Shown piece by piece: positions 4,189 through 62,691 of a stretch of 64,000 nucleotides of DNA (its first letter is position 1; the number at the start of each line of letters is the position of its first letter). This DNA is from a virus. A program made the translations under genes and the position numbers. The notes under the pieces were generated by a model, which searched no databases, was not told the DNA's origin, and saw only the letters and a list, made by a program, of their open reading frames with translations. Where the stretch lies: the IMG/VR virus record IMGVR_UViG_3300020724_000005, one strand, 5' to 3'.

Positions 4189-4872
4189 TTATATATTAAT
4201 TTCACAACTATTTCCAGCACACGCAACTTGGTCCTTAAGGTCTGTGTTGTCTTCTGCCTCTACCACCAAGCTCAGATCTATGTTAGAAAGCGACTCCATC
4301 ATTTTTTCGTAAGTCTCTTTATCGCAGTCTTGGAAAGGTGCCTGAACGTAGGTGTGGTCTGAGAATGGCAGCACTGAAAGCCCGTTGTAGCAAGTCCTGT
4401 TCTCCCACATCCACTCTCCTACAGTGTCCCACTCTCCGTCCTTTATAGAGATCGTGGCCGAGATGTTGTGTGTGTTCTGTCCTGTCTTGTGTCCTGGTTT
4501 GATCCAGTTGTTGTAGAAGTATTTTACCCTCTCGAGCAGATCTATCGCTGACTCTGTCCTCAGTATCGAACCCTCTGGCGCTTTCTGTGGGACCGAGATG
4601 ACTGCCGTGCTGTGGGGCTTGAAGTACTCGTCCTGTATCAGCTCTGGGTGGTATATGCTCAGGTACGTGTATATGGCCTCGTTCTTGCCAACTCTTATGT
4701 TTCTGATGTAGTACTCGCTGTGCCACGCATGTATGCCAGAAGATGTGCCCAGGACTAGAGAGGAGGTATTATGAACCACAGATTTATTTTTTAGTTGATA
4801 TGAATGAGTATTATCTACTTCTATGTCAACAGTAAATTTATTTCCAGACTTTGTTATTTTTTTAATTTTCAT
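4189..4872 (-). CDS. nrdJ: ribonucleotide reductase class II, C-terminal fragment preceded by a split-intein C-fragment (35 aa)
   Basis: MKIKKITKSGNKFTVDIEVDNTHSYQLKNKSVVHN then T(+1)SSLVLGTSSGIHAWHSEYYIRNIRV. Intein blocks F and G end in HN. The extein continues the RNR motif KPSG|TSS. Confidence 0.85.
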   Translation of the reverse strand: MKIKKITKSGNKFTVDIEVDNTHSYQLKNKSVVHNTSSLVLGTSSGIHAWHSEYYIRNIRVGKNEAIYTYLSIYHPELIQDEYFKPHSTAVISVPQKAPEGSILRTESAIDLLERVKYFYNNWIKPGHKTGQNTHNISATISIKDGEWDTVGEWMWENRTCYNGLSVLPFSDHTYVQAPFQDCDKETYEKMMESLSNIDLSLVVEAEDNTDLKDQVACAGNSCEINI

Positions 4873-6007
4873 AATATTTAATTAATTCTATTATATTTTC
4901 TAATACTAATTGCTTATTTTTTAAATAATTTGATTCTTTAACTCTAATTAAATTTAATCCCATATTAGCATATATCTTATCCTTTAATCTATCTCTCTCT
5001 ATATTATTAGGTAAAGAATGCCAATAATCTCCATCAAATTCAATTACAGTATTTCCTATTTTAATGTCTGGTACTATACACTTTATTTGATAATCATTCT
5101 GGTTTAGATTTATAAAATAGGGTTTTGTTATTGGGTAACCAAAAAATACCTCTTTTTGTTTATTGTTTAATAAATCATATAGTGATAAATTAAAATCTTT
5201 TTCTATATTTGAACTAAAATCTGGAAAATAACTAATTTTCTTTTTTATCATATCAGAATATAAATTCCGACCCTCTACTTCTCCAAATTTATCTATATAA
5301 TATTCTAATCTTCCAGATTTTCCTTTACTATAACATAATTCTTTATATCTATTTAAGCCTTCAATTTTTCCAAATTTAGAGATATAATAGTCTTTAGTCT
5401 GTGAATATGCTATTTTTTTATTAGCCTCATCATATTTTTCCTTTCCTATATTATCACCATACTTTTTTATATAATAATCTAACCCTCTTGATTGATTCTT
5501 ATTAACAAACTGTTTAGCTTCTAATTCACTTACTCCATAATATTTCATTACAGATTTATAATCTCTACAAGAATACCCACTGTCTATTTTCTTTTTATAT
5601 CTTAATCTACCCTCTTTTTCTCCATATTTTTTTATCATGCTTTCCAAGTCAGTCTTTGAATTAATAGAGTGTTTTGCTTTAATGTCTTTTATTTCATCAT
5701 CACTATATCCATTTAATTTTAAAGCATTTATACTAACTGAAAGTTTACTATTTTTTTCTAAATATTCCTCTCTACCTAACTCCTCCCCGTATCTTTTAAT
5801 GAATCCATTTAGGGTATTTTTAAACTTATCATTTTCTATTTTTTGTTTATATTTAAATAAGCCTAACTCTTTTCCGTATTTAAACTGTAATACTTTTAAA
5901 GAAGACCCTCGCATTAAATTTGCACATCTCTTGTTGCCCCCCTCTTCTCCAAGTAGATGAATCAGTAGTCGTCTCAGTCTATTAATCTTTTTTATATCTT
6001 TTTTCAC
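4862..6007 (-). CDS. homing endonuclease with a Vsr/DUF559-like nuclease domain (GTG start)
   Basis: The C-terminus reads IEFDGDYWHSLPNNIERDRLKDKIYANMGLNLIRV. About seven KYG-x-x-x-G-x-x-x-Y repeats lie upstream. It is very AT-rich and sits between the two nrdJ halves. Confidence 0.7.
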   Translation of the reverse strand: MKKDIKKINRLRRLLIHLLGEEGGNKRCANLMRGSSLKVLQFKYGKELGLFKYKQKIENDKFKNTLNGFIKRYGEELGREEYLEKNSKLSVSINALKLNGYSDDEIKDIKAKHSINSKTDLESMIKKYGEKEGRLRYKKKIDSGYSCRDYKSVMKYYGVSELEAKQFVNKNQSRGLDYYIKKYGDNIGKEKYDEANKKIAYSQTKDYYISKFGKIEGLNRYKELCYSKGKSGRLEYYIDKFGEVEGRNLYSDMIKKKISYFPDFSSNIEKDFNLSLYDLLNNKQKEVFFGYPITKPYFINLNQNDYQIKCIVPDIKIGNTVIEFDGDYWHSLPNNIERDRLKDKIYANMGLNLIRVKESNYLKNKQLVLENIIELIKYYEN

Positions 6008-6008
6008 A

Positions 6009-6058
6009 ATTAAGCCTTTTATTATAAATATCTGATTAATTACAATAATAGGCTTAAT
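6009..6058 (-). promoter_or_regulatory. 9-bp hairpin abutting the HEG start, with the motif in its loop
   Basis: ATTAAGCCT (6009..6017) pairs with AGGCTTAAT (6050..6058). The loop contains ATAAATATC (6024..6032). In the transcript sense the 3' arm ends 1 nt before GTG 6007. Confidence 0.45.
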
Positions 6059-6071
6059 AGTAAAAATTAAT

Positions 6072-7682
6072 CTAATAATTTATAATATCATCATCATCCT
6101 TCAATTCGTCTGCTCTAACCCACCCCCTATTTTTAGTTAAAAACCTATGATTTGCTGTAACTGTAACTACCAAACCATCTTCAAACTCCACATCAAACGT
6201 TTCTTCTACTCCATTAATGTATAATTTATTAATTTGTTGCCATTCATCATTTAAATCTTTGACTTTTATATCCTCTGTTACTTCTAAAAATAGCTTTTCG
6301 TTATTTTTAAAATCAGATAAGTCATATCCATTGATTTTAAAAATATCCTCTAATGAGAGAATACCTTTATTTGTTATTATTTCAGTTTCTGGTATCATGC
6401 ACCCACTCGGTTTTATTGTAGTGCAACGGGCTGCTGCGTTTATCCCTACCGCTTTCGCTACTGCTGCGTTCGTCTCTTTCACTATGAGAGCGGCCTTTTT
6501 AAGATCCAGCTTCTGAGCAACTCCTGACCCTATTCCAGTCATTCCTACTCCTATTAGTGCTTCTTTCTCTGTAGTCTTCTGCCATATTGGTCTGAGATAG
6601 TGAAAGTTAGTGTATCCTGCTTGTAAAGTCCCTATTATCGCTGCTGCATTTACTCTGTCATTAAGATCTTCTTGGTCTACTACGTCTGAAACATTTACCT
6701 CGCAAAGGTTGCAAAATTGATATGGTCTTAGTGCAATTTCCATACAAGGATTACTTCCTAAATCTTTATCATTACTAAGAAATATACCCGGTTCTCCTGA
6801 TCCCGAGTTCTCAATCTTCTTCCAGAGATCCATAAAGAATTCCTTTGTAAGTCTATTCCTTAAAAGTACAGCCGAGTTATTCGCTCTACCCCTTTGCGGA
6901 TTTAATTCCCACCATTGACCAGTCTTACAAGAGATCATATCCTCATCGTCAGCTGAGAATAGTGATACTAATGCCGCTCTCCTTATACCCCCAGCAAGTA
7001 CTGCATCAGCTATGTGGCAGACCATGTCGTGAACCTCTATCGAGCTGAGTTTATCTCCATCCTCTTTCTGGCTGAGTATTCCATCTAACATTAGTAAGCA
7101 CTCTTTCAGTGGTTGAGGACCTGGAGCTTTACCGCCAGAAGTAACTAGCATTGCTCCTTTTGGACGTATGTCAGAGAAGTCAAAGTTAATCGATGATCCA
7201 CCTCTGAAATAGGACTTGATCAGGGCTTTGACTGCGTCTGCCCAACCCTCTATCGAGTCTCCTATCAGGAACCTTGTGTGCTTCTTTGGGTTCGGTTTCC
7301 TTATCTCTGGCAGCTTCTCAACGTGGTGCTTCTGTACAGAGAAACCTACTCCCGTGCCACCAAGCAGCAGGAACATCGTCTCAGAGAAAGCGTGTATGTC
7401 GTCTATAGGAAGGTACGCGCAGTTATACACTCTGTTAGGAGATATCTCTATCGACTTTCCACCGAACTGCAGGCTCCTCATAGAAGGAAGCACCTTTTTA
7501 TCATATACGAATTCATAAGCCCAGTCTATCTCAGCTTGCATATTGGGATATTTCTTGAGATGCATTGCCTTGTTTCTGTCTACCAATTCTTCCCAAGACT
7601 CTCTCTTCTGTAGTTCTGGGAGGTATTTGGAATATTTTAAGTGTACTGTAATATCTGATAATATTTCCTGTGAGATATTCAT
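6072..7682 (-). CDS. nrdJ: ribonucleotide reductase class II, N-terminal fragment fused to a split-intein N-fragment (109 aa)
   Basis: RNR-like body (SLQFGG, NPCMEIAL, TTIKPSG) followed by CMIPETEIITNKG...TANHRFLT...IINY and a stop. Confidence 0.85.
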   Translation of the reverse strand: MNISQEILSDITVHLKYSKYLPELQKRESWEELVDRNKAMHLKKYPNMQAEIDWAYEFVYDKKVLPSMRSLQFGGKSIEISPNRVYNCAYLPIDDIHAFSETMFLLLGGTGVGFSVQKHHVEKLPEIRKPNPKKHTRFLIGDSIEGWADAVKALIKSYFRGGSSINFDFSDIRPKGAMLVTSGGKAPGPQPLKECLLMLDGILSQKEDGDKLSSIEVHDMVCHIADAVLAGGIRRAALVSLFSADDEDMISCKTGQWWELNPQRGRANNSAVLLRNRLTKEFFMDLWKKIENSGSGEPGIFLSNDKDLGSNPCMEIALRPYQFCNLCEVNVSDVVDQEDLNDRVNAAAIIGTLQAGYTNFHYLRPIWQKTTEKEALIGVGMTGIGSGVAQKLDLKKAALIVKETNAAVAKAVGINAAARCTTIKPSGCMIPETEIITNKGILSLEDIFKINGYDLSDFKNNEKLFLEVTEDIKVKDLNDEWQQINKLYINGVEETFDVEFEDGLVVTVTANHRFLTKNRGWVRADELKDDDDIINY

Positions 7683-8014: not shown

Positions 8015-9400
8015 TTACTTGGAAAGTTCAAAGAATTTCTTACTCAGTATGGATTTCTCTTCAAAAGTCAGACTAGAGCTGTTAGAGGTTTTGAAAGCGT
8101 TGTTCGTAGCTGCCTGCATTGCGTGTATCTCTTCTTCTGTTAGCTCTGTCTCATCTATCTTTATCGTACCGTTGTCCGTGTCGATCATCGCATTGTACGT
8201 CATACCGTCTTGTCCATATCGATTTTTCATGATGTGCACTCTACCTGTCTTGTTGAGTTTGTCTGCTCTCTTTCTGGACAGAGACAGTATGAAGTCTGCG
8301 ATCATGATCTTGTTGTACGATCCTGCTGCCTTGTCACCTTCTACGATGTCATCCTTTGCCCCAGCCCTGTTCACCTGAGACACAGACCATACGGGAATGT
8401 TCAGCTCTCTTGCCATGCCTTTCACCGCGGTGTACACGTCATCTATCTCGTCCTTTACTTCTCCTCCGACCCTTTTTGACTTCAATAGGTCTATGTAGTC
8501 GATGATGATCAGATCAGGTTTGTGTCCCATGTCGGTGCACTTCCTTATGTGAGACTCTATCTTGTTGACTGTGGTCTTGCCCATTGGGAACTCAGCTATC
8601 GTCAGTCTGCCTGGTAAGTTTGCTACTGTCTCTTCTACCTTGCTACGATGCAGGTGGACTTCCTTGAAACCTATGCCGGTGAACACAGAATCGTACCTCT
8701 TGCCTGTGTAGATGTCTGAGAGCTCTAGCGTGTAGTGGTTGACAGTGAGCGCCTGCTTGACTGCCTCAGCTCCTATGTTGACCAGAAACCAAGACTTGCC
8801 TGAGCCTGGTCCTCCGAATATTATGCCAAGGTCTCCTCTTCCAAGTCCTCCCATGAGATGATCGCTTATCTTTGGCCATGGAGTAGGCACTGCCCTTCTG
8901 TCGTCTTCTCTGTACCTCTGCTCTATGTCTTGCAAATACTCGTGTCCTACGTTCTTGTCTGCACCGGCTTTTAACGCAGAATCTATCATGATCCTTATGT
9001 CTTCAAACTGGCCTTTGGAAAGCAGATCTACGGAATTGAGTAGCGCCTTCTTTAATTGCTGGTTCTTGCAGAAGCTTGAGAACTCCAGTTCTATGTACTC
9101 CTTGTCTTCGTTCGCCGTCTTTAACGCCTCTTTCAACTGCTCTGCTACCGAGACCCTGAGGACCTCGTTGTCTATCTTTTTGACTTCTATCTGAAGATAT
9201 TCTAGTGACGGTGTGGTATGATATTTGTAATAATACTTTAGAATGTCTTTGACTATCCACTGTGACGCCGGCGAATCGAACATCTCTGGCTCTACAACGT
9301 CGTGTATCGTCTGTAGGAACTCTTTATGACGTAAAAGTGAAGCAAGAACTTTTATTTGAAATCCACTTCCATACGCGTTGAGCGTGTTTAATTGTGCCAT
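8015..9400 (-). CDS. replicative DNA helicase (DnaB / T4 gp41-like)
   Basis: Walker A GGPGSGKSWFL, Walker B LIIIDYIDLL, and SQVNRAG. I chose ATG 9400 (MAQLNTLNAYG) so the gene does not overlap the upstream HEG. Confidence 0.85.
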   Translation of the reverse strand: MAQLNTLNAYGSGFQIKVLASLLRHKEFLQTIHDVVEPEMFDSPASQWIVKDILKYYYKYHTTPSLEYLQIEVKKIDNEVLRVSVAEQLKEALKTANEDKEYIELEFSSFCKNQQLKKALLNSVDLLSKGQFEDIRIMIDSALKAGADKNVGHEYLQDIEQRYREDDRRAVPTPWPKISDHLMGGLGRGDLGIIFGGPGSGKSWFLVNIGAEAVKQALTVNHYTLELSDIYTGKRYDSVFTGIGFKEVHLHRSKVEETVANLPGRLTIAEFPMGKTTVNKIESHIRKCTDMGHKPDLIIIDYIDLLKSKRVGGEVKDEIDDVYTAVKGMARELNIPVWSVSQVNRAGAKDDIVEGDKAAGSYNKIMIADFILSLSRKRADKLNKTGRVHIMKNRYGQDGMTYNAMIDTDNGTIKIDETELTEEEIHAMQAATNNAFKTSNSSSLTFEEKSILSKKFFELSK

Positions 9401-9407
9401 AACTTTA

Positions 9408-10127
9408 TTATATATTTGGTTTTTTATATTTGCACTTATCAAAATGCCACTGAGTCATTCCGTTATTTCCTCCAATTTTATTACAATGCGGACATTGTAT
9501 TTTTGGATTTTTTATTCCTAATCTATTAGTATTTCCTATTTTAGATATGCTCAATTTTCTTTTATGTTCTTCTGATTTAGATTTTCCCTTAAGAGCTCTG
9601 CTAATATTTGCCTTCTCTAATTCTGATTTTACTCTATTTTTTTGACCTTTAGAAATTGATTCTCTATGTTGTAAAGATAAACATATCCCTAATTTAGATT
9701 TTCTTATATTTAATTTAGTTTCTTCTGATCTTACTTTTCCCGTATTCGATTCTTTCATCTTTTTTTTAGTATCATCAGAAACTAAATGGCCTTTTCTGGA
9801 TAATCTATATAATCGTTTTGTTTCTTCAGAATGTTTAAAACCAAATTGACCTTGTCCACCATCTGTCATATTAACTAAAGGTCCCAATTTAAGATCTGCT
9901 CTTCCATAGAATATAATCCAAAATTTTTCTTTTTCACAGGCTTCTTCCCAAGTTAACCATTCTTCTGACATAATTTCTACTTTATATTCTGTAAGATTAA
10001 TCACATTATTCCAATGAATATTTCTGTTCTTTTTTGAATAAGATCTTTTATAGTTTTTATCTGATCCTATTCCTATATAAAAAACCTCATTCTTGTCTAG
10101 TCTTATATGACGATACACATATGCCAT
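9408..10127 (-). CDS. GIY-YIG homing endonuclease with NUMOD3-like repeats and a C-terminal CPHC zinc finger
   Basis: MAYVYRHIRLDKNEVFYIGIGSD; repeats HSEETKRLY, SDDTKKKMK, SEETKLNIR, SEEHKRKLS; C-terminus CPHCNKIGGNNGMTQWHFDKCKYK. AT-rich. Confidence 0.85.
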   Translation of the reverse strand: MAYVYRHIRLDKNEVFYIGIGSDKNYKRSYSKKNRNIHWNNVINLTEYKVEIMSEEWLTWEEACEKEKFWIIFYGRADLKLGPLVNMTDGGQGQFGFKHSEETKRLYRLSRKGHLVSDDTKKKMKESNTGKVRSEETKLNIRKSKLGICLSLQHRESISKGQKNRVKSELEKANISRALKGKSKSEEHKRKLSISKIGNTNRLGIKNPKIQCPHCNKIGGNNGMTQWHFDKCKYKKPNI

Positions 10128-10137
10128 AAAATAAAAA

Positions 10138-10232
10138 TGGTCCAAAGTGACAAAGAGCCTGCATGCTCTCTATCTCAAAGGACCAATAAGTTCTATTATA
10201 GATAACTCATGCAGGAGCTTCTATCTATAATA
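10138..10232 (-). promoter_or_regulatory. structured HEG leader (copy 1): two hairpins with complementary loops enclosed by a long-range helix
   Basis: Hairpin S1 pairs 10194..10204 with 10222..10232. Its loop CTGCAT is complementary to loop ATGCAG of hairpin 2 (stem 10154..10158 with 10165..10169). The outer helix pairs TGGTCC (10138..10143) with GGACCA (10180..10185). Confidence 0.6.
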
Positions 10233-14405: not shown

Positions 14406-14420
14406 AACCTGATTGTTTTT

Positions 14421-14428
14421 ATAAATAT
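14421..14428 (-). promoter_or_regulatory. GATATTTAT(A/T)A-type motif copy
   Basis: ATAAATATC, 15 nt upstream of ATG 14405. Confidence 0.4.
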
Positions 14429-50256: not shown

Positions 50257-53200
50257 TTATTCTTTGATGTTTCTTTCATCTAAAAGCCCACCTGTTTCAC
50301 TTTGGTTCTCAAACAGGGACACCTTCTTGCCCGCAAACATCTTTGCCATGCTGTCTTTATTCTGAAGATACACCGCTTTAGTGCTTTCAAAGCTCAATGG
50401 TCCACCTTTATATTCTACCTTATCTTCTCCGCGTTCCATGCTAGATCCCATTCCTTTTCTGCCTATTGGATCTCTACCAAACGCACTTTTGTCAGTTCCG
50501 ATGATCGATTTGTACTTTTCAGGCCTTCCTGGCATCTTCACTGGCTCATTAGGATTTGTTTCGTTGTAGCCGTCTGGAACGTCTAAGGTAGGTTTTCCGC
50601 CGTACAGTCCTGCTATCTGGGAAGGAGTTCCGTATGCTGTGCCTGACTCTAGAGGATCGTTTCCTTCTGTCTCTATCTGATCGTATCTGAATTTGTTCTT
50701 TTGGTCTTCGATGATCATGTCTTGGAGCTCACCAAACGAATCAGGAGAAAGGTGGAATATGTTTTCCCAGATGTACTCTTTAGGAAGTATCGCTCCTTCA
50801 ACAGCTTGAGTTGCCAGATCGATCTTCTCTTTGAACATCGCTATCCTCTCCTGGTCGTATATGATGGACGGATTTGTCAGGCTCAGGGTGAAGTTTGCCA
50901 TGCCTTCGTCTGTGTATCCGTTTGCATATAGATGAACTAGAGCTATCTTCTTGAGCTCTGATACTATGATCCTCTGCAGTCTTTCTACAGTACGAGCAAA
51001 CCTGATGTCTTCTGCCGCGAGGGTAGCTTTACCTGTGAGGTCTTTTTCGTATCCCATGAACGCCTTTGGTATCTTCAACGCTGCGAATAGCTTTTCTCTA
51101 AAGTATATGACGTCTTCTATCGCATTGTACTCCAGGCCTTTCGCCGTATCTATCCTTGTAGACGTATCATTGCCTCTTACAGGAACTATGAAGTCTTCTA
51201 GTAGGTTCTGTTGGTTGTACTTTAGGTTGTATTGTCCTGTGTTAGGATCGATCAATGGAGTCTTCTTCATCTTGTTGATCATCCTCTGAACGTAGTTCTC
51301 TACCTCGTTTGGTGGTATCGCTCCAACGTTCGTGTAGAATATCCTTCTCTCTGGGGCACGAGTGATCCTATGGATCAACATGGCATCTTCTATGAGCGTA
51401 TACTGTTTAAACAGCTTTCTTGCTGGCTCTAGGTATGATCTGCCATAGGGAAGATAGTTGACGTCTCCAATGAGCCTGAAATGTGCCATCTCGTAGTTAT
51501 CAAACCACACTCCTGGGTCTTGGTTGTTGAAAGCCGAAGTGTATCCAGATGTTGCTGCCAATGCTGCGTTAGGATCAAACTTGAATCTCACCTCATTAGG
51601 GTTGTTCGGGTTGTATCCTTCCTGGCGCACTATGTTGTATGCTGAAAATGGAATTACATTATACACGCCAAATTTATCAGAGATCTCCATCTTTAAGTAG
51701 AAGTCCCCGTACTTGCACATGTTTCTTATCCAAGACCATAGATTGAACTCTATGTTGAGCACTGAGTAGAATAGGTTTTCTAAGATCTTCTGTATGTTTT
51801 CGTCTGAAGACCTTATAGTCAGTACTTGACCCTGTTCATTTTTGAGTGTACAATTGTGTGTATATATCTTAGACCCGTCTTTAGCCTCTATAGCAAATAT
51901 GTGATTGTCTCCTGCATTTACTATGTCATAAACATCTTCATATCCGCATTCTTCTATTGATACAACTTTATGATTAGATGATTTTGCAAAATCTTCTAAA
52001 GTTGAATATCCATTACCCAACACTATTCTTCTCAACTTATTGATAGTAATAGAATTACTATTACAAAAATCTGATACTAAAAATCTCTTTCCCTCTTTGT
52101 AAGTATTATTGCAATATGACCTAAATTTAATTATAGTATCAGTGCTATGGTTAGAAAGTATTTTATTTATTAGGGTTTTAGTATTATTACACTTATACAC
52201 AGCAAAGAGATCTCTAATTATTTTTCTCCACTCAAATGTTATAATATTAAGTTCTTTTTGTATATCTCCTAAAATATTTTTGTGGGGATCATTTTTTATT
52301 CTATCTATTATATATGCTAAGTTTATAGATTTTTTTCTAGTAGTTTGTGTATTATATCTACCATTTTTTTCTTTTGAAATTTTATATCCTTTTCCATACA
52401 TTCCATTTTTAGATCCACGGTGTCCATATACGATTTTTCTTTCTTCTGAACTCAAATTTTCCATGTAACTTTTCATGGAATCTGATTTCTTTTTCAAAAA
52501 AGACTGCTTATCTACATTTTCCCAAAAATGTTTTTGTCCTTCCATTAATTTTACGTAGTAATCATTTTTTTTGGGCGGATCTGAATTTATACTAACCCAA
52601 AGGTTTTTATTATATTCAGCATGAATTTTATTATGCTCATTCCATCCTACCCACTTTAGAAAATTAGGATTATTATTTCTTTTATCAAAAGAGTCATGGT
52701 GTACTACTGGTTTTTCTTTTGCTGGAATCTGATTCCTCTGTTCTTTTAAAAATGTAACCTGATTTGCTACTATCCTATGAGTATATTCGAATTTATCCCC
52801 ACTCCATATTTTTTCATATCCAGGCATGCTAGTTCCTTCTGATATTTTAGTAGAAAGAGCTAATATACTAGTACTAATTTTTATGTCACTAGTAGTTATT
52901 TGAGATCCACTGCTATCTATCCAAATATGATTAGATGTAGCTTTTACTTCAGTTCCATCATCGAAGGTTATTTTATATACCCTTTTCTTCCCATTATAGG
53001 CCACTTTTTCAGCTTTTACTGGACGGAATTCATTAGTTTTTTCATCTAAACCATATATCCATATGTCTTTTGCTCCTGAGTCGTGCAATTCTTTTATGGT
53101 CTTCTTAGTTCCATCTAAAAGAGGTATAACTGTATCTGCTCCAAGACATTCATCCGCTATAATATCCAATGCTGAAGCTATGATTGCATCTGTATCCATA

Positions 53201-53457
53201 GAATCATAATCAGCGTAGATCTGTACTCTCGCTGACTGATAGTTCATCGCCAGATTCAGGTTGACACCATACGCAGTAGAGGTGGTATAAACTTTGTGGA
53301 ACCTATCAATAAGAGAATTAGTCTGAATAACACCATTGGATTGGATATTATCTGTATCCATGACCGAAAGCATATTGCCCCCATCATTGCGGATAATAAC
53401 GTCCGTACTAAATAGTCTGCGGAGTGTAGAAAATAAATTCTGTTGTATTTCTGCCAT
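50257..53457 (-). CDS. portal protein (T4 gp20-like) interrupted by a 432-aa intein
   Basis: The extein parts YADYDSMDTDAIIASALDIIADE and CTLKNEQGQVLTIRS...LWSWIRNMCKYGDFYLK are gp20-like. The gene is adjacent to the terminase. Confidence 0.8.
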   Translation of the reverse strand: MAEIQQNLFSTLRRLFSTDVIIRNDGGNMLSVMDTDNIQSNGVIQTNSLIDRFHKVYTTSTAYGVNLNLAMNYQSARVQIYADYDSMDTDAIIASALDIIADECLGADTVIPLLDGTKKTIKELHDSGAKDIWIYGLDEKTNEFRPVKAEKVAYNGKKRVYKITFDDGTEVKATSNHIWIDSSGSQITTSDIKISTSILALSTKISEGTSMPGYEKIWSGDKFEYTHRIVANQVTFLKEQRNQIPAKEKPVVHHDSFDKRNNNPNFLKWVGWNEHNKIHAEYNKNLWVSINSDPPKKNDYYVKLMEGQKHFWENVDKQSFLKKKSDSMKSYMENLSSEERKIVYGHRGSKNGMYGKGYKISKEKNGRYNTQTTRKKSINLAYIIDRIKNDPHKNILGDIQKELNIITFEWRKIIRDLFAVYKCNNTKTLINKILSNHSTDTIIKFRSYCNNTYKEGKRFLVSDFCNSNSITINKLRRIVLGNGYSTLEDFAKSSNHKVVSIEECGYEDVYDIVNAGDNHIFAIEAKDGSKIYTHNCTLKNEQGQVLTIRSSDENIQKILENLFYSVLNIEFNLWSWIRNMCKYGDFYLKMEISDKFGVYNVIPFSAYNIVRQEGYNPNNPNEVRFKFDPNAALAATSGYTSAFNNQDPGVWFDNYEMAHFRLIGDVNYLPYGRSYLEPARKLFKQYTLIEDAMLIHRITRAPERRIFYTNVGAIPPNEVENYVQRMINKMKKTPLIDPNTGQYNLKYNQQNLLEDFIVPVRGNDTSTRIDTAKGLEYNAIEDVIYFREKLFAALKIPKAFMGYEKDLTGKATLAAEDIRFARTVERLQRIIVSELKKIALVHLYANGYTDEGMANFTLSLTNPSIIYDQERIAMFKEKIDLATQAVEGAILPKEYIWENIFHLSPDSFGELQDMIIEDQKNKFRYDQIETEGNDPLESGTAYGTPSQIAGLYGGKPTLDVPDGYNETNPNEPVKMPGRPEKYKSIIGTDKSAFGRDPIGRKGMGSSMERGEDKVEYKGGPLSFESTKAVYLQNKDSMAKMFAGKKVSLFENQSETGGLLDERNIKE
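51853..53148 (-). mobile_element. contiguous intein with an HNH endonuclease domain in the portal gene
   Basis: It starts CLGADTVIPLLDG (Cys codon 53146..53148), has block B ATSNHIW and an HNH region VVHHDSFDKRNNNPNFLKWVGWNEHNKIH, and ends VYDIVNAGDNHIFAI...IYTHN followed by C+1 (51850..51852). The core is AT-rich. Confidence 0.85.
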
Positions 53458-53467
53458 ATTTTATTTT

Positions 53468-54895
53468 TTATCCCAATAGCCAATTCAGATCCTCTATAGT
53501 ATTTCCATTTACTGTAGTGATCTCCATTTGATATGGATTATTATTTATAAAGTTATTTGTATTGTAAACTGGGGATTCTCCCATCTTCTTCATCCCGTCT
53601 AATGTAGCATATGTTAAACTCTCTGCCGTCCTTCTGAATCTTATAGAAGAGTCTCTCATATACATCGATATCGCAAAAGACATCACAAGGTCATCATTGT
53701 ATCCTTGCATTGCTTGTGGTTTTGAGTTCTTCCATATGAACACTCTCAATTCTTCTAAAAGCCTAAGTGATCTTATCTTTACTTGCTTTGTCTCTATGAA
53801 GTCTCTCATCCTCTCTATAATAAGAGGTCTTGATGCTGACGACATAGTGAATCCAGGAACTAATGAGTCTGTTGCTCCGTATCTTTCAAGCCTCTTCTCA
53901 TTGTCTAAACTAAAATCTGTCCTATGCGAGTAGTGTAGGTTACTGTAACCGCTCTCGATCAAAGTCTGAAGAACGTCCCAACCTATGTTTGCATTCTCCA
54001 CAGCGACCAAGGCATTGTTGTACTCGAAAGCCGCTGCCAGTATTGTCTTTGCAAACTCTCTGGTGTCGCACTGGGCTTGGTATTCTGCTACCTGGGTCAA
54101 TGTATCTACGTCTATGATGTGGAACGCGGAATAGTCAGCTCCGTCTCCTCTTGCTACGTCTGCACATAACAGATAGGTTTTTAGAGGGCTTGGGTACTCC
54201 CATATCCACATTGCCTTATCGAGTCCCCTTCTTTCGATAGGCTCTAAGACCATGTTTTCTTCATACCAACTTAGTATGTCTGGGATGATGACAGTATTAC
54301 CCGATGAACTAAAGTCACAATCACACTCTTGCGCAGCCATTCTAACTCCAAGGTCTTGATCTTGTCTATCTCTCCAAGGTTGACTTCTTTCTGGGTGTAC
54401 TGTCCAAGGAAGTGATACTGGTACAAAGCTGTTTTCTTTTTTCTGCGCTTTTATATATGTTTTGTGGAACCAATTACCTACGCCGTTTGGAGTCGATAAT
54501 GCTATACATTTACCACCGGTTGCCAAGGTTTGCTGAGCAGAACCAAAAAGATCCTCTGCATTATCTATGAAAGCGCAATTATGACTAACTACATCATTTG
54601 TATAATATTCGTTTTTATTCTTTACGTTTACTAAATCATAAACTTCGAATTCTTCTTCTATAATATCAATAGAAATAATAGAAATATTCCCAAATAGTAT
54701 ATCGCCTACTCTCAATAAACACGCTTCTAGAAACTCACCATTTGGAAATTTAAGACAATGCCCCTCTGTACACTTTATAAAAGAATTATTTGATAATTTT
54801 ATATGAAAAATGATATTAGTAATCTTTGATAAAATTCCATCAAAATCACTAAACCCGGTTGGAGTTAAAATTTCATATTTAGTATTTTTTATCAT
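53468..54895 (-). CDS. terL: large terminase C-terminal fragment preceded by a 106-aa split-intein C-fragment
   Basis: MIKNTKYEILTPTGF...CTEGHCLKF (block B)...EVYDLVNVKNKNEYYTNDVVSHN, then C+1 AFIDNAEDLF, which completes the gp17-like MDE|CAFI Walker B region. A nuclease domain follows. Confidence 0.85.
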   Translation of the reverse strand: MIKNTKYEILTPTGFSDFDGILSKITNIIFHIKLSNNSFIKCTEGHCLKFPNGEFLEACLLRVGDILFGNISIISIDIIEEEFEVYDLVNVKNKNEYYTNDVVSHNCAFIDNAEDLFGSAQQTLATGGKCIALSTPNGVGNWFHKTYIKAQKKENSFVPVSLPWTVHPERSQPWRDRQDQDLGVRMAAQECDCDFSSSGNTVIIPDILSWYEENMVLEPIERRGLDKAMWIWEYPSPLKTYLLCADVARGDGADYSAFHIIDVDTLTQVAEYQAQCDTREFAKTILAAAFEYNNALVAVENANIGWDVLQTLIESGYSNLHYSHRTDFSLDNEKRLERYGATDSLVPGFTMSSASRPLIIERMRDFIETKQVKIRSLRLLEELRVFIWKNSKPQAMQGYNDDLVMSFAISMYMRDSSIRFRRTAESLTYATLDGMKKMGESPVYNTNNFINNNPYQMEITTVNGNTIEDLNWLLG

Positions 54896-55599
54896 TTTAA
54901 AAATTGTCTCATCGATTTTAATAACTGGGGTTGTTCTTCATAATTAATCATATTCGCATTTTTCTTAAACCAACTATCTGAAATTATTACCATTTTATAA
55001 GAATTATCTTTACACCATGATAATGCGCTTTTAAATTTAATTATATTTTTAGGATCCGATTTTAATTTTGATGGTTTTATTTCATATAAAATTTTTTTGT
55101 CAAAATCAACGAAATCTACTATATAAGATGATACTTTATTTTGATATTCATATTGTATTCTTACTTTTTCGTAGTCTAGATGTTGATTTAATAGAAAAAA
55201 TACAGCTTCCCAATTACTTCTGAATTTTTTTATGTCATCTTTAATTTTAATATAGCTTTTCCAATTTGTCCAACTATTAGTTATGCATGGCGTAAATTTA
55301 CCTTCTTTTATAAGTCTCTTTAATCTTATTGAATTCTGTCTTCGTGCTTCTATTACTCTAGGACTACTCTTAATCTTTTCTTTATGTTCCTGTGTCGATA
55401 CAGTTTTTTTATTTGATTCTACTCTTTTTCTTTTTGTTTCTTCTGAATCTTTATGGTGATTATGTGAAGTCCAACATGGTTGAGTACAGTATTTTTTATT
55501 TTCTTTTTTTGTTAAATATCTCTTTCCACATCCGGAACATTCTTTTTCTATAGGTTCTTTCCAATTCCACGAGTGTTTTTTAATATTCTCTATAAACAT
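54892..55599 (-). CDS. homing endonuclease with an N-terminal zinc finger and a PD-(D/E)xK-like C-terminal domain
   Basis: CSGCGKRY...YCTQPCW; NUMOD3-like HKDSEETKRKRVES; C-terminus YIVDFVDFDKKILYEIKPSKL. It is very AT-rich, and its ATGA overlaps the IntC start. Confidence 0.65.
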   Translation of the reverse strand: MFIENIKKHSWNWKEPIEKECSGCGKRYLTKKENKKYCTQPCWTSHNHHKDSEETKRKRVESNKKTVSTQEHKEKIKSSPRVIEARRQNSIRLKRLIKEGKFTPCITNSWTNWKSYIKIKDDIKKFRSNWEAVFFLLNQHLDYEKVRIQYEYQNKVSSYIVDFVDFDKKILYEIKPSKLKSDPKNIIKFKSALSWCKDNSYKMVIISDSWFKKNANMINYEEQPQLLKSMRQFLK

Positions 55600-55610
55600 T
55601 TGCTTTTACT

Positions 55611-55618
55611 ATAAATAT
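55611..55618 (-). promoter_or_regulatory. GATATTTAT(A/T)A-type motif copy
   Basis: ATAAATATC, 11 nt upstream of the HEG ATG 55599. It overlaps the stop of the terL N fragment. Confidence 0.4.
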
Positions 55619-56217
55619 CAATAATGTCCAGATAATTTATTTTTTAATTCATTTATTGTTGTCTTTTCTATTTCGCCAGTATTTTTATTCTTAATTAATA
55701 TTTCAGTATCTCCAGTTACACATTCATCCATCACAAGAAGAGATACTGCTTCAGAACGAGCTGAGTCGCTTGCTCCTGACACTGCCTTTATCTGAGAACC
55801 GTTTGTGAGTCGTAAACTTAGCCTGTTGTCTTCAGTAGCTCCTATCTTCAACCAAGCTGGAAGGTTATCGTATGCAAATCGTACCTTTGTGACCATATTC
55901 TTGGCCGTCTCTTGCTTTGTTGCTATGACCAGTACGTTCTTATCTTTGTGGAATACCATGAGCCAGAGCGCATAAGCAGACACCAACGTTGATATCCCCA
56001 GCTGTCTTGACTTGTTTATTATTACATTTTGGTCTCCTGAAAAGACCTTTAGCATGGATTCTTGGAATGGGTATAGATCAAAGAGCATCCTGCCTCTTTG
56101 AGGGTGTTGGATCATGTAATACTTCTTCATGAAATATACCGGGTCTGTGGCGCATTTCACAAATTCTTCTCGTATCTTATCTTTGATAGTGGATTGCCTC
56201 GTAATCGGTTCGGGCAT
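55618..56217 (-). CDS. terL: large terminase N-terminal fragment (ATPase Walker A/B) fused to a 34-aa split-intein N-fragment
   Basis: KSRQLGISTL (Walker A) and LLVMDE (Walker B), followed by CVTGDTEILIKNK...SGHY and a stop. Confidence 0.85.
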   Translation of the reverse strand: MPEPITRQSTIKDKIREEFVKCATDPVYFMKKYYMIQHPQRGRMLFDLYPFQESMLKVFSGDQNVIINKSRQLGISTLVSAYALWLMVFHKDKNVLVIATKQETAKNMVTKVRFAYDNLPAWLKIGATEDNRLSLRLTNGSQIKAVSGASDSARSEAVSLLVMDECVTGDTEILIKNKNTGEIEKTTINELKNKLSGHY

Positions 56218-56230
56218 AAAACTTTTGTTT

Positions 56231-56238
56231 ATAAATAT
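56231..56238 (-). promoter_or_regulatory. motif copy
   Basis: ATAAATAT, 13 nt upstream of the terL ATG 56217. It is the left arm of the inverted repeat 56229..56265. Confidence 0.4.
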
Positions 56239-62437: not shown

Positions 62438-62691
62438 GTCTTTTTTATCTTTATCTTTACGGATCCGGTTCCTTTTATAGCACGATGCCAAACCCCTCTT
62501 GGTATAAATATCTCTCCTTTCATCTTTACAGGTATCTGGTTGTCCATTTGAAACTTCCAGTCTGTGTCTCCTACCACCTCTATCAACCTATCTTCCTGAT
62601 CTCTGTGCCACTTAAGCTCTATAGGATCTATGTTCTCATCGAACTCTCTGATCAGGACTTCATCTTCCAAAATGTCTTTATATGGCCTCAT
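62434..62691 (-). CDS. hypothetical small protein
   Basis: 85-aa ORF. Confidence 0.45.
   Translation of the reverse strand: MRPYKDILEDEVLIREFDENIDPIELKWHRDQEDRLIEVVGDTDWKFQMDNQIPVKMKGEIFIPRGVWHRAIKGTGSVKIKIKKT

Follow-up and report, generated by a model that had tools for sequence, protein, structure and literature searches.

A fractured phage large terminase gene carrying an AceL/GOS-TerL-type split intein and a TnsA-like endonuclease gene

How does a phage keep its DNA packaging enzyme when the gene for that enzyme is broken in the middle of the ATPase active site, and what broke it? The question is raised by the large terminase gene (terL) in IMG/VR virus record IMGVR_UViG_3300020724_000005, of which we analysed one stretch of 64,000 nucleotides (nt), called the window here. 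At positions 53468..56217 of its minus strand, the reading frames resolve into three consecutive open reading frames (ORFs), namely the N-terminal part of terL fused to a short N-terminal intein fragment (IntN), an endonuclease gene, and a C-terminal intein fragment (IntC) fused to the remainder of terL. An earlier sequence-only reading had proposed an atypically split intein of 34 and 106 amino acids (aa), with a homing endonuclease gene (HEG) of the PD-(D/E)xK type in the gap. The reading that we favour, with a probability of roughly 0.8, is that the AT-rich mobile element behind the Walker B glutamate is a mini-intein of the AceL/GOS-TerL family broken by a TnsA-like PD-(D/E)xK HEG, that TerL would be restored by trans-splicing, and that the element probably homes.

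The first ORF (55618..56217, on the minus strand like every other feature of the locus; 199 aa, stop codon at 55618..55620) begins with a TerL N-extein of 165 aa (55723..56217) that carries a Walker A motif, SRQLGIST, and a Walker B motif with the catalytic glutamate, SLLVMDE. This extein matches Pfam Terminase_6N and GpA_ATPase as well as PHROG 5989, terminase large subunit (5e-50). It ends in SEAVSLLVMDE, which is followed by CVTGDTEILIKNKNTGEIEKTTINELKNKLSGHY and the stop; these last 34 aa (55621..55722) are IntN, containing block A, and its Cys1 codon lies at 55720..55722. A spacer of 18 nt (55600..55617), whose coding strand contains TATTTATA at 55610..55617, separates the stop of terL-N from the start of the free-standing HEG-like gene (54892..55599; 235 aa), which matches PHROG 15427, 'endonuclease' (3e-27). 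The stop of the HEG shares 4 nt, ATGA, with the start codon of the third ORF (53468..54895; 475 aa). The first 106 aa of this ORF are IntC (54578..54895), with T43-x-x-H46 in block B, D87 in block F and H105-N106 in block G. IntC ends in YYTNDVVSHN and is followed by CAFIDNAE and the remainder of TerL, a C-extein of 369 aa plus stop (53468..54577) in which Cys+1 is the first residue and which comprises the rest of the ATPase domain, including the coupling motif IALSTPNG, and the nuclease domain. The C-extein matches PHROG 2, terminase large subunit (1e-25), and is 52% identical to the TerL of Flavobacterium phage immuto. The ORFs, lengths and motifs quoted in the sequence-only reading were all correct. 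All three parts expected of a fractured gene (host-N with IntN, a free-standing HEG, and IntC with host-C) are colinear, on one strand and at one locus. The inserted element as a whole, IntN, HEG and IntC together, measures 1,145 nt (54578..55722), and its G+C content is 22.5% in IntN, 25.7% in the HEG and 24.8% in IntC, against 43% and 41% in the two exteins.

When residue 165 of the first ORF is joined to residue 107 of the third, a protein of 534 aa results that is colinear with T4 gp17 (PDB 3ezk and 3cpe; E ~1e-43), and the alignment is continuous through the junction, with lvmDECAFIDNA in the rejoined TerL facing iyiDECAFIPNF in gp17. The junction region is the Walker B strand of gp17, with its catalytic Glu256. 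The alignment thereby bears out the earlier claim that the insertion lies at the Walker B site MDE/CAFI (a slash marks an intein-extein or insertion boundary throughout), directly after the catalytic glutamate. IMG/VR was scanned with the C-extein, and among the 80 nearest terL loci a single one is occupied; at least 78 have an uninterrupted gene, and one more is truncated by the end of its contig. Ten close relatives, with C-exteins 77-93% identical to that of the window (the one occupied locus aside), lack precisely the inserted element and read SLL(A/V)MDE/AAFID. At the DNA level, the empty relatives have ATGGATGAA followed by GCTGCC (MDE/AAF), where the window has ATGGATGAA, the 1,145 nt of the element and then TGCGCT; at +1, occupied alleles have Cys where empty alleles have Ala. 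The single occupied relative (our labels L004, L008 and L090) has the same three-gene layout, with products of 199, 236 and 475 aa. Occupied and empty alleles are interleaved among the close relatives, since the window is 93% identical to the empty L088 and 92% identical to the occupied L090. The exact protein formed by terL-N and IntN is indexed in 72 blocks of an assembly collection and is present in all 24 contigs that were read, of which one was viewed and the other 23 were listed as similar places. Judged from these sequences, the interruption is a true insertion and not a product of chance.

Could the interruption instead be removed as RNA, by a group I or group II intron carrying the HEG, or be an assembly or frameshift artefact that hides an intein which is really contiguous? 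HEGs of T4-like phages do often lie within group I introns, and spliced terL transcripts are described for phage ICP1 (PMC10448857). However, the non-coding part of the interruption amounts to 18 nt only, Rfam gave no match at E<=1 and no intron-like RNA, and independently assembled contigs and cultured phage genomes show the reading frames in the same arrangement. The group I/II intron reading was rejected on the Rfam result, and removal as RNA or an artefact seems hardly credible.

The intein itself was identified by comparison with known structures. With phmmer, the fused IntN and IntC matched PDB 6dsl_B, 'Consensus engineered intein CatC' (E=1.2e-16, query residues 38-142), and also VidaL 6vgv (8e-5) and gp41-1 6qaz (9e-4), while IntN plus its extein gave nothing meaningful against PDB. 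The segment C-T43-E-G-H46 of IntC aligns with block B, which reads CSDNH in CatC and CSEEH in gp41-1. Block B is therefore part of IntC and the break lies upstream of it, just as had been claimed when TEGH was assigned to the C-fragment. The complete class 1 residue set is present (C1, T43, H46, D87, H105, N106 and C+1). In an alignment of nine IntC sequences H46, D87, S104, H105, N106 and C+1 are invariant and the Thr/Ser of block B is conserved, and Cys1 starts all 35 IntN peptides that were recovered from related IMG/VR loci. Four relatives (L030, L049, L055 and L029) carry a contiguous mini-intein at the same terL site, in which homologues of IntN and IntC are joined via a short linker; the one in L030 reads LLVVDE/CVAGSTKVTVRSKKTGEIREIEIQELYDLYTIKSITEWEVLTPSGW at its start and SSN/CAHIEG at its end. 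Comparison with these contiguous relatives places the break in the short linker between an 'ELxxxL' helix and a '(Y/W)E(I/V)LTPxG(F/W)' strand. The proposal of an atypically split intein of 34 and 106 aa, hosted by a phage large terminase and broken before block B, was thus upheld, and so was its link to AceL-TerL and GOS-TerL, through the CatC match and the fragments reported in PMC11766414.

By homology to inteins that have been tested, the two fragments are predicted to be active in splicing. A trans-splicing reading is also supported by the conserved catalytic residues, by the position of the break within the ATPase active-site strand, and by the fact that the arrangement persists, both in cultured phages, which are viable, and in a population recovered in repeated assemblies. 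A different possibility is that the TerL halves function unligated, held together by intein pieces that serve as a dimerisation device only. Aeh1 NrdA, a phage enzyme split by a HEG, offers a precedent, as it is reported to assemble without splicing (PMC3045599). Non-covalent assembly is nevertheless very improbable for TerL: all splicing residues, including Asn106 and Cys+1, are conserved throughout the family, the empty alleles have Ala at +1, homologues splice in vitro (PMC11766414), and the chain is interrupted inside the ATPase active-site strand right after the catalytic glutamate.

How common is such a break? A scan of IMG/VR with the IntC alignment gave 412 relatives, and the best 80 of these 412 were inspected. 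In 62 of the best 80 loci an in-frame stop precedes the IntC homology by no more than 45 codons, i.e. they are split at the same place. A recognisable terL-N ending in an IntN was recovered at 35 loci among the best 80, with IntN lengths of 30-43 aa in 34 of them and a doubtful regular-expression match of 44 aa in the remaining one. The HEG family of the window lies upstream of IntC in 26 of the best 80 loci. HEG remnants (60 and 129 aa) are left in L019-L022, and L023, L056, L026 and L032 have no HEG. Unrelated endonucleases occupy the same break in L024 and L065 (480 aa, with KYG repeats and a D...EIK motif) and in L033 and L086 (Vsr/DUF559-like), and in L077 and L080, where the intein has another host gene, its break point holds an HNH endonuclease; these types were read by eye from the sequences and not by profile scan. 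Because unrelated endonucleases share this break, the 'atypical' linker is a recurrent landing site for several HEG families and is not tied to any one of them.

Protein collections and cultured phages gave a similar picture. An exhaustive phmmer search of 1.84 billion representatives returned 769 clusters at E<=1e-3, and in 96 of the best 150 of these the IntC homology begins no later than residue 25; a word-based homologue search with the fused intein returned 7 proteins only. At least 80% of the IntC+terL-C query is matched by 72 deposited phage records. In Salmonella phage SG1 (Tequatrovirus, MF001354), terL-N ends in AMIYIDE/CVAKDTKVTIRCKATGEIKEMTMLEVKALAITQKEAKDAQK and a stop, a HEG with YITDF...VYEIKP follows, and the third gene starts with MQFLELDGYEVLTDDGF and passes from intein to extein at NNVESHN/CAFIPNF; the terL-N junction of SG1 reads IYIDE/CVAKDT. 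The same match pattern was seen in E. coli phages HY03, JEP6, PD112, CE1 and G2494, in Yersinia phages TG1 and phiR1-RT, in Pseudomonas phage PspYZU05 and in Shewanella phage Thanatos-2. The statement that naturally split inteins with very short N-fragments are rare consequently holds for characterised examples only, given 412 IMG/VR loci, 769 clusters and many cultured T4-like phages. With this locus the AceL/GOS-TerL type gains another natural split intein in a fractured terminase gene, an arrangement that was published in 2009 and is widespread in T4-like phages, both metagenomic and cultured; biochemical tests of the intein family date back to 2014.

Several variants of the arrangement were observed among the related loci. 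Three metagenomic proteins (P0111, P0112 and P0113) are 'middle' TerL fragments that start with an IntC of this family and end in a second short IntN at an ...AAQEC/D site (e.g. QE/CVDGDCVVSVCDTYTNSIMDMKISDLYTKLDESC), which implies that atypically split inteins break some phage terL genes at two places; the terL of the window is uninterrupted at this second site (RMAAQECDCDF). In L061 (1870..4686) a TnsA-like HEG is in frame with the IntC-terL-C ORF, giving 935 aa, and the intein ends in SGN/S instead of SHN/C, so that this version may be decaying or remodelled. In L002 (Campylobacter phage CP30A, JX569801; 2498..3826) IntC+terL-C comes right after the gp13 neck gene, with no adjoining terL-N or HEG; the N-fragment of CP30A may have its gene in another part of the genome, and the split terL would then be truly dispersed. 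A site lying a few codons further upstream, ahead of the Walker B strand (SHN/C(L/V/S)LLDE), also holds relatives of this intein, some contiguous and some split, in L047, L057, L059, L063, L070, L087, P0113 and P0114.

What, then, is the gene in the gap? The HEG product begins with a four-cysteine, zinc-ribbon-like motif (residues 21-42), continues with a helical linker (40-98) and ends in a PD-(D/E)xK core like the N-terminal domain of TnsA (~104-220; 54940..55290). Within this core the catalytic candidates are E144, D162 (in IVDFVD) and E173-x-K175 (in YEIKP). We found 110 homologues in a set of 5.8 billion proteins and aligned 53 of them; E144, D162, E173 and K175, the classical PD-(D/E)xK constellation, are invariant in this alignment. 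Pfam PF08722 (Tn7_TnsA-like_N) is matched by 44 of the 53, with a best E of 2.4e-10, and NUMOD3 and a double zinc ribbon by two each. An alignment-based AlphaFold2 (AF2) model of the HEG reached a mean predicted local distance difference test score (pLDDT) of 92 and consists of two short strands, several helices (40-98) and an alpha/beta nuclease core. Foldseek searches with this model against PDB placed TnsA 1t0f_A first (probability 0.99, 164 columns), with Cas4 and I-Bth0305I lower, and against BFVD the top matches were proteins named 'TnsA endonuclease N-terminal domain' of phages CP20 and PspYZU05 (E=1e-14 to 1e-11). A profile of the HEG family run against PDB sequences gave noise only (TFIIS) plus weak matches to T7 endonuclease I.

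The model, the Foldseek matches and the four invariant residues confirm the proposed PD-(D/E)xK fold of the gap gene. The zinc finger that had also been proposed is plausible from the cysteine motif, C21-x2-C24...C38-x3-C42, from its recurrence as CxxC...CxxxxC in the majority consensus of the 53 homologues, and from the strands 17-20 and 27-30 that AF2 predicts there with high confidence. The 'NUMOD3-like repeats' found little support, as the HEG of the window has no Pfam NUMOD3 match and only two of its 53 aligned homologues have one. Membership in the Vsr-like/EDxHD family of I-Bth0305I was considered and discarded, since the motif is of the D...ExK kind and the likeness to 3r3p is one of fold only (probability 0.6-0.77). 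The nrdJ gene of the window is likewise fractured, with nrdJ-N and an IntN of canonical length at 6072..7682 (minus strand) and a HEG of 381 aa at 4862..6007 (minus strand) that matches Pfam REase_MTES_1575. A common origin of the two HEGs was rejected (BLASTP E=37; hhalign probability 0.4%), in agreement with the sequence-only reading, which had assigned them to different families.

The TnsA-N-like endonuclease family is the least-described part of the element, and in the library searched, no paper relevantly combines TnsA, homing endonuclease and intein. We see an even chance that the gap ORF represents an uncharacterised HEG family, composed of the four-cysteine motif, a helical DNA-binding linker and a TnsA-N-like PD-(D/E)xK core, that has repeatedly invaded the linker between blocks A and B of terL mini-inteins and so has generated most natural 'atypical' split inteins. 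If this is true, the overlap between HEG stop and IntC start ties the expression of an essential packaging enzyme to the translation of a selfish gene; the shared ATGA suggests that the HEG and terL-C are translationally coupled.

In the mechanism that we propose, the HEG gene sits in the linker between the first beta-hairpin plus helix of the intein (block A) and the strand 'YEILTPTGF', so that the intein would be made as two pieces, IntN on TerL(1-165) and IntC on TerL(166-534). The two polypeptides would associate, and the HINT fold would be completed when the short IntN docks on the larger IntC. Class 1 trans-splicing would then proceed by an N-S acyl shift at Cys1, trans-thioesterification to Cys+1, cyclisation of Asn106 and an S-N shift, and its predicted product is a seamless TerL of 534 aa that reads VMDE-CAFID, with the native DE-CAF sequence of T4 gp17 at its junction. 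The HEG probably cuts terL alleles that have no intein or a contiguous mini-intein, and repair would copy the element in (homing). The composite element most likely owes its mobility to the HEG and its predicted nuclease activity, given that the element is present in some alleles and absent from others, that its base composition is foreign and that the catalytic motif of the HEG is intact. The stages of HEG gain and loss among the related loci match the series of Dassa et al. 2009.

An alternative concerning only the HEG also deserves weight. The intein may still trans-splice while the HEG is no longer an active homing enzyme, either because it is decaying or because it is kept via translational coupling to terL-C, in which case the element would pass on by vertical descent, with sporadic losses. 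Every stage of decay and loss occurs at the same break in related loci (the remnants in L019-L022 and the loci L023, L056, L026 and L032 without a HEG); moreover, the HEG of the window is among the shortest, with 235 aa compared to 300-360 aa for many homologues, and taken alone it falls below Pfam thresholds. Yet its ORF is intact, its four catalytic residues are invariant in the family, its model is confident (pLDDT 92), and occupied and empty alleles are interleaved among its close relatives (93% identity to L088, 92% to L090). Compared with L004, the ratio of nonsynonymous to synonymous substitution rates (dN/dS) is 0.18 for the HEG, 0.33 for IntN, 0.25 for IntC and 0.03 for the exteins, all below 1, though these values are rough because dS is saturated (>1). 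An inactive or domesticated HEG beside an active intein is the main alternative, and we regard it as unlikely.

Besides the saturation of dS, further results weigh against a trans-splicing intein broken by a TnsA-like homing endonuclease. The HEG of the window itself has no PF08722 match at E<=0.1 and only sub-threshold matches to restriction-fold Pfam families (e.g. Tox-REase-9, 0.005), and the Foldseek E-values to solved structures are weak, the best being 0.03 (TnsA 1t0f_A). No contiguous mini-intein was found in any close relative. A single-sequence AF2 prediction of the fused IntN and IntC with short exteins reached a pLDDT of only 34 and was unusable, so the assignment of the intein fold rests on sequence homology. 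Finally, a hairpin upstream of the HEG, a feature noted by Dassa et al., is unsupported at this locus (z=0.06).

Among possible expression signals, scans for sigma-70 promoters and for terminators gave background level. The octamer TATAAATA occurs 20 times in the window, where 4.35 occurrences are expected by chance; 16 of the 20 copies are on the plus strand, hence TATTTATA on the coding strand. Copies lie, for example, at 55610..55617, 56230..56237, 6023..6030, 14420..14427 and 62503..62510, and at least six precede a minus-strand start codon by 4-30 nt, among them copies in front of terL-N, the terL HEG and the nrdJ HEG. We consider TATAAATA a candidate phage promoter motif, of which the terL HEG would have its own copy.

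Two other loci of the window also bear signs of mobile elements. Directly downstream of terL lies a T4-type portal (gp20) gene (50257..53457, minus strand; 1,066 aa) with a large in-frame intein at about residues 111-514 (CLGADT...THN/CT), which matches Pfam Intein_splicing at 3.6e-8, just below the gathering score; the portal of L004 has no intein and measures 634 aa. At 9408..10145 (minus strand) a NUMOD3-containing ORF of 245 aa, probably a free-standing HEG, overlaps the start of a DnaB/gp41-like helicase gene (8015..9442, minus strand).

The locus does not overturn current understanding. Together with its relatives it provides a series that runs from the empty site through the contiguous mini-intein, the HEG-invaded split intein and the decayed HEG to the split intein without a HEG, and this series supports the 2009 model of split-intein origin. 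A short IntN can be synthesised as a peptide, which makes split inteins of this kind useful for semisynthetic protein labelling. The locus adds one more natural Cys1/Cys+1 pair, of 34 and 106 aa, and hundreds of natural variants with an IntN of ~30-43 aa can be mined for faster or orthogonal pairs.

The closest characterised systems are AceL-TerL (IntN 25 aa, IntC 104 aa), GOS-TerL (37 and 115 aa) and Cat-TerL (30 and 104 aa), all of them active in trans-splicing (PMC11766414, which cites Thiel 2014, Bachmann & Mootz 2015 and Stevens 2018 as their sources; PDB 6DSL). Like the intein of the window, these three are hosted by a phage large terminase, are split after block A and have a long IntC with blocks B, F and G, and AceL and Cat share its Cys1/Cys+1 pair. 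The window intein differs in its lengths of 34 and 106 aa and, although the CatC match spans nearly all of IntC, in a clearly diverged sequence. An IntN of about 25 aa, quoted earlier for AceL-TerL and GOS-TerL, is right for AceL and not for GOS, with Cat in between; given these three lengths and the 34 of 35 recovered loci that range from 30 to 43 aa, an IntN of 34 aa is ordinary for the family. VidaL (6vgv) and gp41-1 (6qaz) share the HINT fold and are detectable sequence relatives, and the VidaL alignment crosses the break point.

For the endonuclease, TnsA of Tn7 (1t0f, 1f1z) and T7 endonuclease I are alike in fold and in the type of catalytic motif (Foldseek probability 0.97-0.99). Unlike TnsA, the HEG of the window is a small protein that stands alone and includes a four-cysteine motif and a helical linker; it lacks the C-terminal domain of TnsA as well as any Tn7 partners, and it is found in the context of an intein and not of a transposon.

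As to the arrangement, 'fractured genes' were defined by Dassa et al. in 2009, who included a gp17-like terminase locus from Lake Gatun whose intein has an unusual break point, with motif N1 alone in the N part (PMC2677866). The window agrees with those genes in the order of host-N with IntN, a short spacer, a free-standing HEG on the same strand, and IntC with host-C overlapping the 3' end of the HEG (PMC2677866). It differs in that their HEGs are GIY-YIG and Vsr-like only, whereas that of the window is TnsA-N-like with an E...D...ExK motif, in a spacer of 18 nt and an overlap of 4 nt as opposed to 27-51 nt and 6-69 nt, and in the hairpin, present upstream of most such HEGs but scoring only z=0.06 here. 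The cultured T4-like phages SG1, HY03, JEP6, PD112, TG1 and PspYZU05 come nearer still, since they share the three-gene layout, the insertion point (IYIDE/.../CAFIPNF), the HEG family (YITDF...YEIKP) and the position of the intein break. Their IntN is longer (41-43 aa), their IntC/terL-C is ~29% identical over query residues 7-440, and their HEGs are 34-37% identical to that of the window over most of their length. In GenBank, such a locus is entered as 'terminase large subunit' twice, together with a hypothetical protein or an endonuclease.

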